DNA of 18,557 bases, from contig JBDRBF010000028.1 of the NCBI GenBank assembly GCA_043822925.1, positions 1 through 18,557 of the forward strand, given 5' to 3'. The stretch's first letter is position 1. The number at the start of each line of letters is the position of its first letter. The notes under the pieces were generated by a model that was not told where the DNA came from, searched no databases, and was given only the letters and a program-made list of their open reading frames with translations. The translations under genes and the position numbers were made by a program. Positions 10,660-17,957 of the stretch are shown here, piece after piece. The stretch comes from a bacterium. Its GTDB lineage: Bacteria; Babelota; Babeliae; Babelales; RVW-14.

Positions 10660-12108
10660 ATGGAAATCCGTACCAGATTCGCCCCCAGCCCTACCGGCTA
10701 TGTTCACGTTGGAGGCCTACGAACCGCACTTTATAGTTATTTATACGCAAAAAAGCATACCGGCTCATTTCTTTTACGCATAGAAGACACAGATAAAACG
10801 CGAGAAGTTCCAGGCTCGCTTGAAAATATTATAAAAGCTTTAAACTGGGCTGGAATAACTTTTGACGAAGGCCCCGGCAAAAACGAAAAATACGGCCCCT
10901 ATATCCAATCAGAACGCCTAGATCTTTACAAAAAACATGCCGAACAATTAGTAGCAGCCGGACACGCGTATTACTGTTTTTGCTCGTCTGAACGTCTGGC
11001 AACAGTACGCGAACAACAAACAGCTGCAAAGATGCCACCAGCGTACGATAAACATTGTCGCCATTTAACCCCAGAGCAAGTACAACAAAAGTTAGCAGAA
11101 AATCCCACGCACGTCATACGCATGAAAATACCAACAGAAGGCCAAGTAACGTTTACAGACTTAATACGTGGCCCCGTAACGTTTAATTTTAAAGTAGTCG
11201 ATGATCAAGTTATTTTAAAATCTGACGGCTTTCCAACATATCACCTAGCTGCCGTTATCGATGACCATTTTATGAAAATAACACACGTAATACGTGGTGA
11301 AGAATGGCTCTCAAGTACGCCAAAACACTTATTGTTATACAAATATTTCGGCTGGCAAGCTCCTGAATTTGCACACTTACCCCTACTGCTTAATCCAGAT
11401 AAAAGTAAATTAAGTAAACGCCAAGGCGATGTAGCCGTCGAAGATTATCGAGATAAAGGCTACCTGAAAGATGCACTAGTTAACTTTGTTGCTCTTTTAG
11501 GCTGGAACCCCGGTGAAGGCACAACACGCGAGATATTCTCACTCGAAGAACTTATTCAAGAATTCTCGCTCGAGCATGTTGGCAAATCTGGTTCTGTATT
11601 TAACCTAGAAAAGCTTAACTGGCTCAACCAGCAATATATACACTACAAAACAACTGACCAAGAATTATTGGCACTTTTAAAACCATTATTTATAGAACAA
11701 AATTGGGTAAATTTTTCAGACAACTTTTTCTTAAAAGTTATAAACTTAATAAAAGACAGAGCAATAATCTTGCCAGATTTTGTTGTGCATGGACGTGTTT
11801 GTTTTGAATGTCCAACAGAGTTTGACGCCAAAATGCGTGAAAAAGGCTGGCTACTAGAAACACCTGCAATCATGGCAGAGCTTGCGCAAAAACTCTCACA
11901 AGCCCCTGTTCTTGATCTGGCGACAATAGAACAAATATTACGCGCGCATGCTGAATCCAACCAACTAAGTCTTGGAAAACTCATGCTCCCATTACGCCTG
12001 GCTCTTACTGGCGTGGCCCAAGGACCAAGCATGTTTCATTTAATCGAAGTCTTAGATAAAGAAGAAACAGTTTTACGTATTAATAACGCAATAACGGCTC
12101 TTAAATAA
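10660..12108 (+). CDS. gltX: Glutamate--tRNA ligase
   Basis: RTRFAPSPTGYVHVGG (HIGH motif), LRIEDTD, YYCFCS..YDKHCRH zinc site, DGFPTYHLA, HVIRGEEW, KLSKR (KMSKS motif); RBS AGGAG. Confidence 0.98.
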   Translation: MEIRTRFAPSPTGYVHVGGLRTALYSYLYAKKHTGSFLLRIEDTDKTREVPGSLENIIKALNWAGITFDEGPGKNEKYGPYIQSERLDLYKKHAEQLVAAGHAYYCFCSSERLATVREQQTAAKMPPAYDKHCRHLTPEQVQQKLAENPTHVIRMKIPTEGQVTFTDLIRGPVTFNFKVVDDQVILKSDGFPTYHLAAVIDDHFMKITHVIRGEEWLSSTPKHLLLYKYFGWQAPEFAHLPLLLNPDKSKLSKRQGDVAVEDYRDKGYLKDALVNFVALLGWNPGEGTTREIFSLEELIQEFSLEHVGKSGSVFNLEKLNWLNQQYIHYKTTDQELLALLKPLFIEQNWVNFSDNFFLKVINLIKDRAIILPDFVVHGRVCFECPTEFDAKMREKGWLLETPAIMAELAQKLSQAPVLDLATIEQILRAHAESNQLSLGKLMLPLRLALTGVAQGPSMFHLIEVLDKEETVLRINNAITALK

Positions 12109-12145
12109 ATTAAATAATTAATTTATTAGTTTATTAATTAAACGC

Positions 12146-12190
12146 ATATAGCAAAAAGCCCCGATAATACATCGGGGATTTTTGCTATAT
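12146..12190. terminator. Bidirectional intrinsic terminator between gltX and the convergent pseudogene
   Basis: ATATAGCAAAAAGCCCCGAT-AATAC-ATCGGGGATTTTTGCTATAT: GC-rich stem with A/T tracts on both sides. Confidence 0.85.
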
Positions 12191-12206
12191 AATCAAACTT
12201 CTATTA

Positions 12207-13359
12207 TCAAAATAACCGTAAGACTTTCTTCGGGTCAAATGGCCCAGTAGAAAATTCTACCAAAATCCTACTTTCCACCATTTTTTTAAGTCTTGTACTT
12301 GTTGTTCTCGGGGTAACAGCCCAAAGAGCCTGTGCTTTTTTAGGGGATATCGTCTTATGTTTTTTTTAAATACTCTTTTATTGGCTTATCCCAATCACCA
12401 ATAATATTCTGCTTCTGTTTTTCATGATACAACGTTACTTTAAAAAAATTACCCACTTCTTCAAACTTTGGAGCAAGAATTCCATGCTGCTGGCAAACAG
12501 TCTGCATTCTTTTAAAACCAGAACCCCACTGTTCTATTAACTCAAGCTCCCTAAACACACGCCCAATAACCCGGTTACGCAACGGTGAAATCCCAGACAA
12601 TGGCAGCTTCCATACTGAGACCAAACGGCAAACATCCCGAATTAGTTATTTCTATACGGTCATCAAAAATTGCAACGTGAATCGAAGCTCCCATAATTGA
12701 ATAATCAGTATGTACCAAGGCATTAGTTATCGCCTCTCTTAAAACAACATCTGGATATTGTAGAACTTTCTTATGCCTTGTGGCCCCAATTTCAATTGCC
12801 ATTGAAGTATGGCGTCTAATAAAAGAAAGCACATGCTTTAAAGCAACTGAAATTTTGAAATATTATTAAAAAATTCTTTTGCTAACTCAAGATTAATATT
12901 TGATAAAGCACAAGAAAAATTAGGCTGTTCATCAAAGTGTTTATATTCCTGTAGGCGCTGTATTTGTGAAATAGTTTAGCTATCAGCAAGCCGATTCATT
13001 GAACCAAGACGAACATAAGTCCCCCCTGACATACCTTTTGCTTTAATATAAAATGGACCAAAACGGTGCGGCACCGAAACAATAAGAAGATCACGGCTTT
13101 GTAACGTATAAAACAGAAATGATGGGAATATTTGCGGAAAAACTGAGTCAGCAACGGCACTGGCTAATTTTTCTTCTTCTTGAAGAACATCTCCCAGCCC
13201 AACGACCTCTTTTGTTTTATCTGCGATTCCAATAATCAGTGAGCCTCCCGCAGTATTTGCAAACGCGACTATTGTTTGAATTATTTTTTGTAAAGACGTG
13301 GTACATTCTTTGAACTCAAGTGTCTTGCCTTTATTTTGAATTAGTAATTCGTTTATCAT
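12207..13359 (-). pseudogene. Degraded AlbA_2 (Schlafen-like) + HATPase_c_4 + winged-HTH gene (family often annotated as ATP-binding protein / RecG-like transcriptional regulator)
   Basis: Fragments read in order: KTLEFKE..IVAFANTAGGSLIIG..YVRLGS; LREAITNALVHTDYS..IFDDRIEITNSG; LRNRVIGRVFRELELIEQWGSG; AQALWAVTPRTTSTRLKKMVESRIL ending at TGA 12207-12209. Interrupted by an in-frame stop (12976-12978), a frame change near 12855, and frameshifts near 12601 and 12360. Confidence 0.88.
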
Positions 13360-13490
13360 ACAAAAACCCCTTAAATCACCGAGCAATCATAACTTATTTC
13401 TTCTCTACCTAGAAAACAACCTAGAAACCAACAATGCACAAGCGCTTCTAGGTTTGCACATAAAAAACCCGCCAAACAGACGACATGCAT

Positions 13491-13561: not shown

Positions 13562-14377
13562 TTATATCTTCACAAAAACAGGCTGTCTATTTTCAAAATA
13601 CGTAACATATTTAAAACCAATTTCAGCCAACTGTTTAATCACAACTTCAAAATTACTGCCGATACTTGACGAACTGTGTGCATCAGAACCAATGGTTATA
13701 ATCTGACCACCGAGCTCTTTATATCGTTTTATAACCCCATATTCAGGATGAGTAAAACCAAGTTTGCGTGCAAGCCCGGCCGTATTAATCTCTATCCCCT
13801 TGCCATTTTCTATAATTTTTTTAAAAATCATATCTAATAAATTTTTTTGATCTTCATATTTTAAAGCAGGATCTGTATATGGGCTATAACGACACGCATA
13901 GCCAATGTGTCCAACAACATCAAAATCGTTACCCATTGCACAAACAGATTCGTAAATCTCTTCAAGATATCGCGTATACGCTTGATTCTTAGTCTTATTA
14001 TCATAAAACCCACCATCGCTACCAAGACTTTTTCTATCAACAGAGTGAACCGAACAAATAACAAAATCAAAATTATATGTATTTACAATCTCTGCTGACT
14101 TGAGTGCTACATGCGGCTGAAAGCCAAGCTCTAAGCCTTTTAATATTTTAATCTTACCGGCAAAATCATGTTGGGCCTGATTCAAAACACGGATACGTTG
14201 TTCAAAATCAAAAGATAAATCCATTGCCGGATCTGGGTAGTCTAAATCCATGTGATCAGTAAATATAAGCCCACCAAGTCCATTTTTAATGGCACTCTGA
14301 ACTCCATCTCTAACAGCCATTTGGCTATCAGCAGAAAAATAGCTATGCGTATGACAGTCGACGATAGATTTTAACAT
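13562..14377 (-). CDS. PHP-family phosphatase, histidinol-phosphatase HisJ type
   Basis: DCHTHSYFSAD, FTDH, GLELG, DFVICSVH, DVVGHIGY, GIEINTAG, ITIGSDAH. True substrate not determinable from sequence. Confidence 0.88.
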   Translation of the reverse strand: MLKSIVDCHTHSYFSADSQMAVRDGVQSAIKNGLGGLIFTDHMDLDYPDPAMDLSFDFEQRIRVLNQAQHDFAGKIKILKGLELGFQPHVALKSAEIVNTYNFDFVICSVHSVDRKSLGSDGGFYDNKTKNQAYTRYLEEIYESVCAMGNDFDVVGHIGYACRYSPYTDPALKYEDQKNLLDMIFKKIIENGKGIEINTAGLARKLGFTHPEYGVIKRYKELGGQIITIGSDAHSSSSIGSNFEVVIKQLAEIGFKYVTYFENRQPVFVKI

Positions 14378-14511: not shown

Positions 14512-14549
14512 TTGCACCCATGTGCAATAAACAGCCCATATGCTATACT
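14512..14549 (+). promoter_or_regulatory. Putative extended -10 promoter with a palindromic operator-like site
   Basis: TG-C-TATACT (14541-14549); palindrome TTGCAC-CCAT-GTGCAA (14512-14527) overlaps the -35 position. Confidence 0.45.
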
Positions 14550-14651
14550 GATAAAACGTGGGGTTTTCTTATACAAGGTACACAAATCTGTCCTAAAAAA
14601 TGGGATCTAACGATTCTAAATAGTTCTGGAATACCAAGAAGGGGTATATTT

Positions 14652-15350
14652 ATGTATAACAATTTTGATAATAATTACTCAGGCACAAATTCAATAACCA
14701 AGGTTATGTACAAAGTATATGCATGGATGGGGGCTGCGCTGGCTATAACAGCCGCGACAGCATATGGCGTGTATTCACATACACCACTATTCACTGCGCT
14801 TGTAACCAATAAACTTCTGTATCTTGGTCTGATTCTTACGCAATTTGCACTCGTTCTGGCCCTCTCATTTTTCTTAAAAAAGATGAGCTTTGGCTCAGCA
14901 GCCCTTGCATACATCGTGTACGCTATAACATCTGGCGCAACACTTTCAGTTATATTCGCGCTCTATCAATTACCATCAATCGTAACTATATTGTGCGTTA
15001 CGATGGCAATGTTTTTTGTAATGGCCCTTTATGGTTATTACACAAAAGCTGATTTGACCAGCATGGGTAACATCATGCTCATTGCTCTTTTTGGATTTAT
15101 TATTGCAAGTGTCGTTAATATGTTTTTACACAATAGTATGCTTGAACTTTTTTGCGCATGGCTCGGTGTAATAATTTTTACCGGCTTAATTGCATATGAT
15201 ACGCAAAAAATAAAAGATATCTCAGCTAACATGATCGAACAAGGCGAGCCAACAAACAAAATCGCATTATTCGGCGCATTAACGCTTTATCTTGACGTCG
15301 TAAACTTATTCTTAAGTTTATTAAGATTATTTGGTAAAAAGAAAGACTAA
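14652..15350 (+). CDS. Bax inhibitor-1/YccA (YbhL-like) membrane protein
   Basis: KVYAWM, GYYTKADLTSMG, GVIIFTGLIAYDTQKIK, GALTLYLDVVNLFLSLLRLFG; about 7 TM segments. ATG 14652 follows AAGGGG and is preferred over 14520. Confidence 0.93.
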   Translation: MYNNFDNNYSGTNSITKVMYKVYAWMGAALAITAATAYGVYSHTPLFTALVTNKLLYLGLILTQFALVLALSFFLKKMSFGSAALAYIVYAITSGATLSVIFALYQLPSIVTILCVTMAMFFVMALYGYYTKADLTSMGNIMLIALFGFIIASVVNMFLHNSMLELFCAWLGVIIFTGLIAYDTQKIKDISANMIEQGEPTNKIALFGALTLYLDVVNLFLSLLRLFGKKKD

Positions 15351-15537: not shown

Positions 15538-15579
15538 GTGCACATGTTTGGTATAAATTTTTATACCAAACATGTGCAC
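15538..15579. repeat. 42-bp palindrome (perfect 20-bp arms, 2-nt spacer)
   Basis: GTGCACATGTTTGGTATAAA-TT-TTTATACCAAACATGTGCAC. Confidence 0.95.
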
Positions 15580-15618
15580 AAAAAAGAAGCCTGGCCAAAC
15601 AACCAAGCTTCTTTTTTT
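15580..15618. terminator. Intrinsic terminator, probably bidirectional, ending the SBP-pLGIC operon
   Basis: AAAAAAGAAGCCTGG-CCAAACAA-CCAAGCTTCTTTTTTT. Fully paired (one G-U) on the minus strand, about 17 nt after the stop at 15636. Confidence 0.8.
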
Positions 15619-15635: not shown

Positions 15636-16715
15636 TTAAATCCAATAAATCGTCAAAAACACCACTAATAACACAAGAATCAGTACGAATAAAATGTCAT
15701 TGAGATTTTCAAGCTTTTCATTACGCAATTTCTTTGTTTGCTCATCAAGATTACCACTTTTATGCAAAACCAATACGATATATGTTTGTAAAAATAATAT
15801 CAAGAGAGAAAGAAAAACAACCAGGTAATAAACCTTATCAATATGCGTTATATATCCAACACGTGGCGAAACTGAATCAATCACTAATCTAAAAAGTACC
15901 AAGGCAGGCACGCCAGCCGAGACAAGACCAATTCGATTAGAATCTGTAATATTTAACATCATTGAAATCAACATAAGAAAGAACAAAATAAAAAGTGGAA
16001 AATAAAGCGAAACCGGCAACCGTGCACTAACATTTTCAAATCCTACAGTAAACGCAACGCAGGGATATGTAATATTCATACGAGAATCTTGAGGATTAAA
16101 ATCTGCCTTAATATACCCAGCACAAGCAACTGTTTCTTTTGGCTTCCAATTTTCAACTAACATATTTTCTGGCAAAGTTATACTTCCAGGCTCGGTAACA
16201 AAAACCAATTCTTGCGCCGTCACACTTTTATTCTGCAAAATAAAACTCAGCTTATGATCACCAATAGGAAAAAAATTATACTTAAGAACCGCCATAAAAT
16301 TTGCTTGAATGTGATAACTAACAAGCACTTCTTTATCAAGTATTTTTATAATCGGCGGCGATTTATAAATAAGACTTCCATCCCCAAGCAACTTACTATT
16401 TTTCAGCGTAAACTTACCAAGCGTATCCAAAGACTCTGTCGCTTGAGCGAATCTAAACCAAACAGTTGCATCGATTGAAAAATTATTACTAGAAAATGAA
16501 AAATCCGGAAAACTATTAACATGTATTCCAACAGTTACCGGCGTAGCCAATTTCTTAATTTTATCGTCCACCTGCAAAAGTTTAGGGAATTCTTCACTAT
16601 GAATAGTTTGTTTATATTGTAAAACGAAAAGAAGCATTATATAACAAACAACCGCAAGTATCGACATCAATTGAAATTTAGTCGTTTTAATAATTCTCAG
16701 CAAATCAAACGTCAT
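15636..16715 (-). CDS. Prokaryotic pentameric ligand-gated ion channel (pLGIC / Pro-loop receptor) homolog
   Basis: Beta-sandwich pattern PVTVGIHVNSF..NNFSIDATVWFRF; Pro-loop YNFFPIGDHKLSF; ENW; M1 with Pro (LYFPLFILFFLMLISMML); M2 starting at Arg; M2-M3 loop PRVGYITHID; M3; C-terminal M4. Confidence 0.8.
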   Translation of the reverse strand: MTFDLLRIIKTTKFQLMSILAVVCYIMLLFVLQYKQTIHSEEFPKLLQVDDKIKKLATPVTVGIHVNSFPDFSFSSNNFSIDATVWFRFAQATESLDTLGKFTLKNSKLLGDGSLIYKSPPIIKILDKEVLVSYHIQANFMAVLKYNFFPIGDHKLSFILQNKSVTAQELVFVTEPGSITLPENMLVENWKPKETVACAGYIKADFNPQDSRMNITYPCVAFTVGFENVSARLPVSLYFPLFILFFLMLISMMLNITDSNRIGLVSAGVPALVLFRLVIDSVSPRVGYITHIDKVYYLVVFLSLLILFLQTYIVLVLHKSGNLDEQTKKLRNEKLENLNDILFVLILVLLVVFLTIYWI

Positions 16716-16718
16716 AAT

Positions 16719-17876
16719 TTATCCCTTTATAATTGATATTTCTCTACCAAAAGCATGCCGATTAGTCTCATCAAAATTAACCATAAATCCATCTATCATA
16801 TGTTGTTTCATATTTTCTATTGCTTTAATAATTTTTTCTTTAGTTATCGTTCCAGATATATTTTTTATGGCATCGATTATTATCGCCGTACTCACGTAAT
16901 AGCTAAACGCTAAAATATTTGGAATCTCTTCTGGAAAATATTTTTTCATATCTTCTAGATATTGTTTGGCTAAAAGCATCTGACTTGTTTTTGGATCTGG
17001 CACAGCCGAACTATAATAAAAATCAGCACCACGCGCCTGAACAATGTCTCCGACAAAAAGCGTAGAATCTATGCCGAAAAACGTAACTCCATAATGCCCC
17101 TGCGTAAAAAAATTATTAATTAATTTCACAACCGGCATACTCGTCGATAAGCAAATAACTATTTTAGGATCAGATTCTATCAATCTTTTAACAGCACCAG
17201 CTATATCAAGCGTAAATCTATTGTACGACGCTATAGCAACAGGCTTAATGTCATGCGCAACAAGTTCTTTAGTCAGCTCATTCGAAGCATCTGTCGAAAA
17301 ATCATCATCAGCATGAAAAATGGCTATTTTTTTTAGTTTTATATTTTTCTCAATATAATCAACTATCGCCGTTAGTTGTGGTTTTAAAAGTCCTGGACCA
17401 TTAATTATATGAGTTAATTTTGGATCACGAAACTGTTGGTCGCCACTCCATGGGAAAAAAAGCGCAATTTTTTCTGTTTTAATAAGAGGCAATAACTTAA
17501 GCACACTTCGTGTACCCATATTTCCAATAAACATGTCTATGCCATCTTTGAGTAACCGCTCAACGTTTTCTTCTGTTTTACGTGGGTCGCCGGCATCATT
17601 CACGCTCACCAATTTTAACATCTTGCCATGCACCCCACCACTATCATTAACGTGATTCATACGCGCCTGAATCGCTTTTTGTATAATATTCCCATAAAGC
17701 CCAAAAGCGCCATCCAAACTCGCCGACTGCCCAAACACAATGCTATTATTACTTGCAGGCTCTTGATTTACTCTTTTTTTATCTATAACTACCTGATCTC
17801 CTAGGCCATCACTTACAAGACCAATAAAAACACAGATACTTATGAAAAACACAAAAATTATCTTTTTGATCTTCAC
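16719..17876 (-). CDS. Type I (LIV/Venus flytrap) periplasmic ligand-binding protein, branched-chain amino acid SBP-like
   Basis: Signal or anchor sequence, then IVFGQSASLDG..VNDSGGVHGKMLKLVSVNDAGDP..GNMGT..KKIAIFHADDDF. GTG 17876 follows GGAG; the ORF-track start at 17888 is an alternative. Confidence 0.9.
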   Translation of the reverse strand: MKIKKIIFVFFISICVFIGLVSDGLGDQVVIDKKRVNQEPASNNSIVFGQSASLDGAFGLYGNIIQKAIQARMNHVNDSGGVHGKMLKLVSVNDAGDPRKTEENVERLLKDGIDMFIGNMGTRSVLKLLPLIKTEKIALFFPWSGDQQFRDPKLTHIINGPGLLKPQLTAIVDYIEKNIKLKKIAIFHADDDFSTDASNELTKELVAHDIKPVAIASYNRFTLDIAGAVKRLIESDPKIVICLSTSMPVVKLINNFFTQGHYGVTFFGIDSTLFVGDIVQARGADFYYSSAVPDPKTSQMLLAKQYLEDMKKYFPEEIPNILAFSYYVSTAIIIDAIKNISGTITKEKIIKAIENMKQHMIDGFMVNFDETNRHAFGREISIIKG

Positions 17877-17957
17877 GGCACTCTCCACTGGTAATGGTTA
17901 AAAATAAACACGTTACTTTTAGAGACTATTTATTTTCCCTCCTGTAAAGCAATAGTT

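Follow-up and report, generated by a model that had tools for sequence, protein, structure and literature searches.

The stretch of DNA analysed here (the window; 18,557 nucleotides) is a whole contig. It carries two adjacent genes on the minus strand, one encoding a secreted periplasmic binding protein of type I (SBP; P0001) and one encoding a divergent homologue (P0002) of the pLGICs, ion channels that are pentameric and ligand-gated. Their features are the following:

16719..17888, minus strand: gene for P0001, the secreted periplasmic binding protein of type I (longest ORF, 389 aa, GTG start)
17883..17886, minus strand: putative GGAG ribosome-binding site of the SBP gene, six bases before GTG 17876, read by eye
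16749..17741, minus strand: Peripla_BP_6 (LIVBP-like, two-lobe) domain of P0001 (Pfam, residues 50-380; a genome search with PF13458 gave the same coordinates)
16723..16727, minus strand: AAGGG, Shine-Dalgarno-like ribosome-binding site of the channel gene, within the last SBP codons, read by eye
15636..16715, minus strand: gene for the divergent pLGIC homologue P0002 (359 aa, ATG start), assigned from the ORF, profiles and Atlas structural neighbours
16602..16685, minus strand: N-terminal hydrophobic helix of P0002 (residues 11-38, from hydropathy), possible signal anchor or additional TM0
16032..16601, minus strand: periplasmic (extracellular-type) domain of P0002 (residues 39-228), with the Pro-loop FPIGDH at 149-154
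15639..16031, minus strand: four-helix channel domain M1-M4 of P0002 (residues 229-359), aligned to M1-M4 of GLIC; its M3-M4 loop is short
15538..15617, minus strand: two tandem terminator hairpins with T-runs (15617-15580 and 15579-15538), 3' of the channel stop codon

The stop codon of the SBP gene (TAA, 16721-16719) is followed after 3 bases by the ATG of the channel gene (16715-16713), and the two genes are likely to be translationally coupled. The spacing is typical of related loci, where the median gap was 3 nt and 58 of 62 pairs had 30 nt or less (duplicate loci removed by hand). The tandem hairpins had a folding energy of -52.2 kcal/mol (z -10.9), and none of 200 shuffles folded equally well. 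The second one, a 19-bp perfect palindrome that was also picked up by a terminator consensus scan, could terminate the convergent Bax1-I gene (14520-15350) as well; this gene is the nearest neighbour of the operon. The ORFs, the sequence and the hairpins thus confirm the two-gene operon with 3-nt spacing and a closing terminator that had been proposed in the original prediction.

About 670 bases are visible upstream of the pair. A promoter scan gave 12 sites against a shuffle mean of 13.4, with no excess. Among three runs of RNA reads, one (X6) gave two contigs, restricted to 17582-17883 in the 5' part of the SBP gene, for which DNA carry-over is possible; the other two runs gave no contig, and none bridging the SBP and channel genes was found in the three.

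Family assignment of the two proteins

P0001 matched Peripla_BP_6 with E 7e-41 and 141.5 bits (cut-off 31.7) over residues 50-380, a match above the gathering score that spans profile positions 2-329 of 343, which bears out its earlier description as a LIV-type binding protein. A profile of the SBP family matched PDB entry 4kv7 with E 2.2e-46 across both lobes and 338 profile positions. The N-terminus has a hydrophobic stretch (residues 1-31, from hydropathy), and Sec-type signal peptides were judged by eye to be present in 36 relatives. A lipoprotein anchor was considered and rejected, as inspection by eye of these 36 relatives showed that a conserved lipobox Cys is absent. By its Pfam match and its export signal, P0001 is classed as a soluble, Sec-exported LIVBP-like binding protein. 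The true start of the gene is probably GTG 17876 and not GTG 17888, because the former has the GGAG site six bases upstream and the latter has no such site.

The assignment of P0002 depended on profiles. As a single sequence it had no match to the two pLGIC models of Pfam, Neur_chan_LBD and Neur_chan_memb, and 45 orthologues gave weak hits to them in 2/45 and 10/45 cases (best E 0.033 and 0.029, respectively). The match to NCBIfam LIC had E 3.1e-7 and 29.5 bits, far from the cut-off of 280, and a single-sequence phmmer search of the PDB returned GlyR alpha-1 alone (E 0.016). The failure of P0002 to reach the Pfam gathering score is a limit of model sensitivity and no argument against homology. 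With one profile of channel sequences (A1) the best E in the PDB was 3e-6, and all 60 listed chains were pLGICs; with a 108-sequence family profile, GLIC was matched from the Pro-loop through M4 with E 3.5e-18, and 247 distinct PDB chains were found at E <= 0.01. The structures nearest to the ESM Atlas model of P0002 (pTM 0.74, pLDDT 0.81) belonged to pLGIC clusters, with TM values of 0.69-0.84 over residues 53-359 or more. Similar clusters are also listed in the Atlas, and the few members recorded for them belong to Cyanobacteriota, Bacillota and Planctomycetota. The identification of the 359-aa protein as a pLGIC, made beforehand from its hallmarks, therefore stands, although these hallmarks are visible only with profiles.

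Hydropathy placed hydrophobic segments at residues 229-259, 261-283, 289-320 and 334-359. The N-terminal helix is conserved in part of the family, and some Atlas neighbours align from residues 1-6 onward. In the 108 channel sequences the Pro-loop, which aligns with that of GLIC, had P150 in 108 and H154 in 106; Pro240 of M1 (107/108) and Pro284 between M2 and M3 (108/108) aligned with the corresponding GLIC residues, and R276 and D293 were also near-invariant. P270 of M2 was invariant in type 1 channels (45/45) and faced the gate residue of GlyR and GLIC in the HMMER alignment, at what we take to be position 9' in the prime numbering used here for all M2 positions. A proline at this position is atypical for a conducting pore. 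Small and polar residues occupied the aligned 2', 6' and 13' positions in the wider family, and the loop-C region (about residues 200-217) looked variable in the alignment of orthologues, judged by eye. From the profiles and the model, P0002 is assigned as a very divergent homologue within the pLGIC superfamily, with a beta-sandwich domain, four TM helices and the conserved prolines; as such it would be expected to form a pentamer, to conduct ions and to be gated by a ligand.

Conservation of the pair, natural fusions and a third partner

The genome (92% complete) has exactly two channel genes and exactly two Peripla_BP_6 genes, arranged as two SBP-then-channel pairs. In 28 of 29 orthologous loci the channel gene had an SBP gene as its neighbour, and so it did in 20 of 20 loci of second and third paralogues from the same family; in 37 of 40 hand-picked loci from 11 families an SBP gene lay near it (34 direct and three second neighbours); these counts are of non-independent events, because kin inherit operons by descent. 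The types of the two partners matched in all 60 pairs (30 CH1-SB1 and 30 CH2-SB2). A related-loci search with the A1 alignment yielded 14 loci and no new architecture. All came from Dependentiae, TM6 or Babeliales MAGs, or from MAGs labelled uncultured Pseudomonadota, and the organism names bear out the suspicion that the organism, a groundwater bacterium, is of the Dependentiae type.

Of 261 genomes, 159 had the channel and 166 had Peripla_BP_6 (searched at E 1e-5). When the two lists were compared by hand, 142 genomes had both, 17 had the channel only, many of them incomplete, and 24 had Peripla_BP_6 only. Both genes were absent from two families (f3, 0/16, and f5, 0/14). In three orthologous loci (L029, L053 and L054) the position of the SBP gene is taken by FtsW or other genes. 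These loci and the 17 of 159 channel genomes lacking an SBP match indicate that the channel is able to exist without its partner. The adjacency is not due to chance, and judging by these genomes it has been kept across the phylum Dependentiae. Its conservation in relatives had been set as a test in the original prediction, which had also suggested a survey for fused versions.

Among 19 long relatives scanned, six had the channel and then Peripla_BP_6 in a single chain of about 1100 aa, and four of these six also had a Metallophos match, in the order channel-Metallophos-Peripla_BP_6. According to hydropathy the fusions lack any hydrophobic segment beyond M4, which would make their added domains periplasmic, like the sensor domain of the channel. 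In most modules there is also a third component, a Metallophos phosphoesterase of the periplasm. Of 19 paralogue loci scanned, 12 had it as the downstream gene, and in many loci it was fused to the PBP; GNHE, which we take to be the Metallophos motif, was retained by 14 of the 19 partners that were inspected.

The Metallophos gene was absent from the type-1 module, both in the window's pair and in orthologous loci. A Metallophos gene at 5454-6704 of the window was rejected as the missing partner: the search for the channel-linked type found its orthologue on another contig (C8; E about 1e-73 to 1e-82), and the window contig gave no match at E 1e-4. As read from gene content, the window pair represents a Dependentiae module of binding protein, channel and Metallophos that is reduced to two parts. 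The original prediction had overlooked the second paralogous pair, the Metallophos partner and this reduced nature of the window pair.

Possible roles of the pair

Proteins of the Peripla_BP_6 family usually work with LivHMGF-type importers. A fused relative is listed in one source as a substrate-binding protein of branched-chain amino acid transport, and P0001 might in the same way serve an ABC importer encoded elsewhere, its adjacency to the channel gene being a historical accident. No ABC permease or ATPase was found by Pfam among the 15 window ORFs, in agreement with what had been said of both sides of the operon. The original prediction had also considered that the SBP might group and work with a LIV ABC transporter encoded elsewhere. 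No LivH/LivM pair and no LivHMGF transporter was found in the genome, which is 92% complete, so that for this organism taken alone a Liv transporter on a missing contig is possible; LivH, LivM and LivG/LivF, which would place P0001 in a HAAT (LivJHMGF) import system, were thus not found as a set. The single BPD_transp_2 permease gene sits in a self-contained operon of ABC_sub_bind, permease and one ATPase. Of 35 genomes from the same family, 15 lack BPD_transp_2, yet 34 have the pair; only one genome (G137) has a LivH-LivM tandem, and it adjoins a separate and much stronger Peripla_BP_6 match. The adjacency, the cognate pairing and the fusions point the opposite way as well, and we regard the importer explanation as very improbable. 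The more probable partner of the SBP is the channel, not a transporter. None of the three conditions under which the original prediction would have fallen (no pLGIC fold, no conserved adjacency, a LIV transporter as partner) was borne out.

Our preferred interpretation, which we hold to be reasonably probable, is that the SBP is the dedicated ligand sensor of the channel and gates or modulates it by contact. The SBP would close on a small periplasmic solute, the loaded SBP would dock on the periplasmic domain of the channel, and the docked SBP would open or modulate the pore. In the original prediction the candidate ligands were an amino acid, an amide or a GABA-like compound. A chemical cue would in this manner be converted into ion flux or a change in membrane potential, and the cue, in a host-dependent bacterium, would probably be a host metabolite. 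Chemotaxis is an unlikely output in such a phylum.

The SBP could alternatively do no more than concentrate or pre-select a solute near the membrane, as proposed in the available text of Tasneem et al., 2005 (PMC549065); the solute itself would then bind the inter-subunit pocket of the channel and open it, with no gating contact by the SBP. The channel has retained a full periplasmic domain, and the channels without an SBP described above (three loci and 17 of 159 genomes) must be gated some other way. However, covalent fusions and the matching of 60 of 60 pairs fit a physical complex more easily than a diffusible hand-off, and the variable loop-C is unlike a conserved orthosteric pocket, a weak argument. 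We consider this alternative unlikely. A further possibility is that the pLGIC homologue is no longer mainly a channel and forms a pentameric platform holding a phosphoesterase and the SBP, for instance for the capture or processing of host phosphoesters, with the window pair as a remnant. This would suit the proline that type 1 M2 has at aligned 9' and the Metallophos partner of most modules, downstream or fused to the PBP or to both, with GNHE in 14 of 19. Type 1 modules, in the window and in its orthologues, have no Metallophos gene, however, and the near-invariant gating hallmarks (P150, P240, P284, R276 and D293 over 108 sequences) argue for a working allosteric channel. The wider family also has small and polar residues at 2', 6' and 13'. 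A platform of this kind seems quite unlikely to us.

Contact gating by the SBP might also be part of a larger scheme, which we offer as a speculative extension of low probability. In this three-part, enzyme-coupled sensor of Dependentiae, Metallophos would free a product from a host phosphoester, the SBP would capture the product, and the loaded SBP would gate the pentameric channel. Split, two-part and fully fused versions would exist, and the window pair would be the enzyme-free one.

If the SBP does act on the channel, a role would be found for the sole Peripla_BP_6 proteins of many reduced, host-dependent Dependentiae genomes, which would otherwise be annotated automatically as orphan transporter parts, and there would be a possible route by which Dependentiae might sense the host. 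To our knowledge, hardly any prokaryotic pLGIC has a known native ligand or physiological role, and the structural models GLIC, ELIC and DeCLIC are studied with surrogate stimuli. Here the ligand can be searched for on a soluble, easily produced SBP, which gives a handle on the ligand of a pLGIC. For cryo-EM the stoichiometry is set by the natural fusions, and the split and fused forms permit a direct test of whether a clamshell gates a pentameric channel in trans.

Comparison with known systems

P0002 belongs to the same superfamily as GLIC, the proton-gated channel of Gloeobacter, and resembles it in its size, its short M3-M4 loop and its lack of Cys-loop cysteines. Unlike GLIC it has no Glu at the aligned -1'/-2' positions, in what is presumably the standard numbering. 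An N-terminal hydrophobic helix, a proline at 9' of type 1 M2 and a dedicated SBP distinguish it from GLIC, ELIC and DeCLIC. The accessory domain of DeCLIC, in the available text on that channel, is an N-terminal jelly-roll pair and not a PBP (PMC12664993). P0001 shares with LivJ/LivK and other HAAT SBPs the fold, the Pfam family and signal-peptide export, with full-length matches to 4kv7, 3lop and the LivJ/LivK structures. In contrast to LivJ/LivK, Peripla_BP_6 genes in this genome are always beside a channel gene, and no LivHMGF was found.

The pairing of PBPs with pLGICs is already known in principle. The available text of Tasneem, Iyer, Jakobsson and Aravind (2005; PMC549065) describes bacterial pLGICs with PBP-type sensors, either fused or in predicted operons, that were predicted to be small-solute chemoreceptors, so the earlier statement that some prokaryotic pLGICs have fused or neighbouring sensor domains was right. 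In those systems, PBP-I domains are fused at the N-terminus (alpha-proteobacteria), and PBP-II or Cache proteins stand alone in operons. The Dependentiae loci share the principle of a pLGIC core with a PBP sensor and differ in PBP class and layout: PBP-I stands alone upstream of the channel, the fusions are C-terminal, after M4, Metallophos is added as a regular third partner, and the channel clade is one that is missed by Pfam. In the main text of Jaiteh et al., 2016 (PMC4795631), no mention was found of PBP partners, operons or additional domains.

The amino-terminal domain of ionotropic glutamate receptors is LIVBP-like, according to the available texts of two sources (PMC549065; PMC12664993). 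The likeness lies in a LIVBP clamshell that regulates a ligand-gated channel. Those receptors are tetrameric, have a pore loop and always carry the clamshell fused, whereas the channel described here belongs among the pentameric ones, with a clamshell that is mostly a protein of its own; if the preferred interpretation is true, the pair would be a pentameric counterpart of these receptor domains. Free periplasmic binding proteins act in trans on membrane receptors in Tar with maltose-binding protein and in LuxQ with LuxP, but there the output is a kinase cascade, and in the Dependentiae pair it would be an ion channel.

The two-gene unit and its products

The binding protein (SBP) P0001 and the channel homologue P0002 are encoded as follows.

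17888 to 16719, minus strand: P0001 gene, 389 aa, GTG start (ORF call)
16727 to 16723, minus strand: AAGGG run inside the end of the SBP gene (sequence read)
16715 to 15636, minus strand: P0002 gene, 359 aa, ATG start (ORF call)
15617 to 15580 and 15579 to 15538, minus strand: two tandem hairpins, each followed by a T-run, directly past the channel stop
14520 to 15350, convergent: Bax1-I family gene, next to the channel gene

Three bases separate the SBP stop codon (TAA, 16721-16719) from the channel ATG at 16715 in the sequence as read, a layout typical of translational coupling. GTG 17876 is a more likely SBP start than GTG 17888, because GGAG lies six bases upstream and the product would begin with MKIKK and a hydrophobic core. 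The tandem hairpins fold at -52.2 kcal/mol (z -10.9; none of 200 shuffles folded as well), and the second was also found by a consensus scan. This second element (15538-15579) lies between convergent genes and probably terminates transcription from both directions; it is a perfect 19-bp palindromic hairpin flanked on one side by T-runs and on the other by A-runs. The gap and the hairpins bear out the predicted two-gene unit closed by a terminator. The Pfam scan of 15 window ORFs revealed no ABC permease or ATPase. In a groundwater metatranscriptome (run X6), contigs cover only the 5' part of the SBP gene (17582-17883), and one ends at 17883, close to the proposed ribosome-binding site.

The window is one entire 18.6-kb contig of a 1.52-Mb genome (86 contigs, rated 92% complete). 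Relatives carry the names candidate division TM6, Candidatus Babeliales or Candidatus Dependentiae, in line with the guess made for this organism, and some MAGs bear the label uncultured Pseudomonadota. Near-identical DNA occurs in groundwater metagenomes; run X1 contains 0.68 of the sampled words, and 9 of its 11 contigs compared are at least 99% alike. Elsewhere the window encodes a 695-aa WD40 beta-propeller protein (387-2474) with many eukaryote-type propeller matches; host-associated bacteria often have eukaryote-like repeat proteins of this sort. A short Schlafen/AlbA_2-domain ORF (12976-13386, 136 aa) adjoins a PHP-domain protein (13562-14377), and only short ORFs lie from 12108 to 12976.

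P0001 matched Peripla_BP_6 in Pfam (E 7e-41, residues 50-380). Its closest solved relative was 4kv7 (E 1.3e-21 with the single sequence), and a 36-sequence SBP profile matched 4kv7 over both lobes (E 2.2e-46), in agreement with its description as a LIV-type binding protein. The N-terminus has a hydrophobic stretch by hydropathy, and the signal peptides of relatives, judged by eye, are Sec-type and have no conserved lipobox cysteine; P0001 is taken to be a soluble periplasmic protein.

For P0002, the Pfam scan gave no significant match and NCBIfam gave weak ones (LIC 3.1e-7, 29.5 bits against a cut-off of 280; LGIC_1 4.2e-4). Searched alone against the PDB, it found the glycine receptor alpha-1 (E 0.016). 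A profile of 45 orthologues matched 106 PDB sequences at E up to 1 (best 3e-6), and all 60 of the PDB matches listed were pLGICs. A wider-family profile of 108 sequences matched GLIC at E 3.5e-18, aligned from the Pro-loop through M4, and found 247 distinct PDB chains at E up to 0.01. At the level of homology, these profile searches settle P0002 as a pLGIC. The ESM Atlas model of exactly this protein (pTM 0.74, pLDDT 0.81) has bacterial pLGIC clusters as its closest structures (TM 0.69-0.84); in one, named proton-gated ion channel, 90% of the members carry Neur_chan_LBD. The pLGIC identity originally proposed was thus confirmed; in the HMM comparison, GLIC was recovered by the family profile and Pfam remained silent on P0002.

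Hydropathy placed an N-terminal helix at 11-38 and further helices at 229-259, 261-283, 289-320 and 334-359, with a short M3-M4 loop. The N-terminal helix is an unusual feature; as it is partly conserved, it may be kept as a fifth helix rather than cleaved. Six pLGIC-family residues are nearly invariant in the wider-family alignment.

Table. Nearly invariant residues of P0002 (108 sequences)
P150, Pro-loop, 108/108
H154, Pro-loop, 106/108
P240, M1, 107/108
R276, M2, 102/108
P284, M2-M3 loop, 108/108
D293, start of M3, 108/108

An unusual M2 feature is P270, invariant in the window's orthologue group (45/45), which HMMER aligned to the 9' residue of GlyR and GLIC; this position is mostly Thr in the wider channel family. 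No Glu was found at the aligned -1'/-2' positions.

Pairing of binding protein and channel

The genome encodes exactly two channel-family and exactly two Peripla_BP_6 genes, arranged as two pairs with the SBP gene first in each. The second lies on contig C8, together with a gene considered below.

L098:1581-4005 (= L002:120-2544), G000 C8: paralogous SBP (440 aa), then channel, whose ORF overlaps the SBP ORF (longest-ORF call)
L098:10810-12606 (G000 C8, about 15.3-17.1 kb), minus strand: Metallophos gene, 598 aa, GNHE kept

The two pairs are mutually only 26-28% identical, so the duplication is old. Downstream of the C8 pair are genes for a 349-aa protein without Pfam match and for one of 753 aa whose faint Chlamydia-PMP-like match (E 9e-4) does not reach Pfam's cut-off.

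Across the phylum, the channel family was present in 159 of 261 genomes and Peripla_BP_6 in 166; by hand comparison, 142 had both, 17 only the channel and 24 only the binding protein. Families f3 (0/16) and f5 (0/14) had neither. In 28 of the 29 best orthologous loci (tblastn, the window's own excluded; two of the 28 cut by a contig end), the SBP gene lay immediately upstream of the channel gene on the same strand; the remaining locus, L029, lacked it. Among 40 loci, hand-chosen from those listed to spread over 11 families, a Peripla_BP_6 gene adjoined the channel gene in 34, stood one gene further away in 3, and was not seen in L045, L053 and L054. It was directly upstream in all 20 second- or third-paralogue loci of the window's own family. 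The adjacency is therefore kept in 28/29, 37/40 and 20/20 loci. The gap has a median of 3 nt, and 58 of 62 pairs have one of 30 nt or less (duplicate loci removed by hand). Partner types were never swapped: 30 channels of the window's type had SBPs of that type, and 30 of the paralogous type had paralogous SBPs. Since these loci are kin by descent, the counts show that the pairing has been kept over a long time, not that it arose independently.

In four loci of the orthologue group (L029, L050, L053, L054) the channel gene is followed by one for a Kdo transferase (Glycos_transf_N), and in L053 and L054 FtsW/RodA precedes the channel in place of the SBP; these neighbours place the window's channel type among cell-envelope genes in several relatives.

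The only BPD_transp_2 permease gene of the genome lies on contig C24 between an ABC_sub_bind gene and one ABC ATPase, a cluster whose gene content marks it as a self-contained system of another type. A BPD_transp_2 permease was absent from 15 of 35 same-family genomes, several rated 91-95% complete, and SBP-channel pairs were present in 34 of the 35. Among them, a LivH-LivM tandem occurs only in G137, where it adjoins a separate Peripla_BP_6 gene of the canonical kind with a far stronger Pfam score (1.2e-63). Some Dependentiae have such a second, canonical class of Peripla_BP_6 genes (about 420-450 aa; Pfam E 1e-55 to 1e-79), for example G137:C4:51279-55487, beside that tandem, and G092:C8:67059-70606, three in tandem; many genomes with it lack the channel family.

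Fusions and a Metallophos partner

An exhaustive representative search for channel relatives gave 654 clusters (E up to 1e-3), and 19 long relatives were scanned against Pfam. Six (about 970-1110 aa) have the channel N-terminal and Peripla_BP_6 C-terminal, four of these with a Metallophos match in between; two have an N-terminal DUF5985 membrane domain, and in 11 the extra part has no Pfam match. Hydropathy showed no hydrophobic segment after M4 in the channel-Peripla_BP_6 fusions, which places the added domains in the periplasm, on the side of the channel's sensor domain. Four arrangements occur across the loci.

SBP, then channel (the window's type)
SBP, channel, then Metallophos protein (12 of 19 downstream genes scanned in paralogue loci)
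Channel, then Metallophos-Peripla_BP_6 protein of about 750 aa
Channel, then protein of >1100 aa with Metallophos and two Peripla_BP_6 domains

GNHE, a catalytic signature of this enzyme family, was present in 14 of 19 Metallophos partners examined. In relatives the channel-linked Metallophos gene directly follows the channel gene. The window's genome has one orthologue of this type (E 1e-73 to 1e-82; its other Metallophos genes 1e-13 to 1e-18), the C8 gene, which is encoded on the other strand some 7 kb away from the second pair. The window's pair is thus a two-part version, lacking the enzyme, of a broader three-part module. The window's own Metallophos gene (5454-6704, 416 aa), directly after a GlmU-like nucleotidyl/acetyl-transferase gene, was ruled out as a member, having no match to that type.

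Several relatives have other architectures. Those of about 550 aa (P0098, P0112; L056-L058 of family f18) have an N-terminal block of some six hydrophobic helices, matching DUF5985 in two, and in the f18 loci a Metallophos-Peripla_BP_6 gene follows the channel gene. Others, of 600 to 1560 aa (P0080-P0082, P0068, P0071, P0079; L044-L046), have long N-terminal extensions without Pfam match, some with many hydrophobic segments. In three genomes a conserved 458-477-aa protein without Pfam match or hydrophobic segment lies between two tandem channel modules (L059:4468-5844, L060:4497-5930, L061:4599-6005); its homologue in the window's genome is at C20:27282-28775 (E 1e-40 to 1e-49).

A probable dedicated sensor and its precedents

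The binding protein is most likely a dedicated partner of the channel. In the simplest mechanism, which we infer, its clamshell would shut on a periplasmic solute, the closed SBP would dock onto the channel's periplasmic domain, and the pore would then open or be modulated. Tasneem et al. suggested a hand-off, the solute itself binding the channel; this seems less likely here, as strict cognate pairing and covalent fusions speak for a physical complex rather than diffusion of the solute. The atypical M2 proline, and the minority of loci and genomes in which the channel has no SBP, call for caution about gating by the SBP; that the pentamer mainly serves to hold a periplasmic enzyme and its binding protein seems slightly more doubtful still than the hand-off. 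The split chemoreceptor originally predicted, in which the SBP acts on the channel in trans, withstood each comparison that could have contradicted it: the fold, the adjacency, and a LIV transporter, the genome's sole BPD_transp_2 permease lying in a separate ABC_sub_bind system.

The core idea of a PBP sensor with a pLGIC is twenty years old. Tasneem et al. (2005; PMC549065) described N-terminal PBP-I fusions to pLGICs in alpha-proteobacteria and pLGIC operons with stand-alone PBP-II or Cache proteins, the sensors being proposed to cooperate with the channel. The principle was therefore already known, and the precedent claimed for fused or neighbouring sensor domains matches that account. Searches of the openly accessible literature found no prior description of five points that appear to be new: the stand-alone PBP-I partner, C-terminal fusion after M4, the Metallophos partner, a channel clade invisible to Pfam, and the spread of the module across a host-dependent phylum. 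The pair gives experimenters a practical way to search for the native stimulus of a prokaryotic pLGIC. Compared with the systems of Tasneem et al., the stand-alone partner here is a PBP-I rather than a PBP-II or Cache protein, and the fusion is C-terminal, after M4, whereas their PBP-I fusions are N-terminal.
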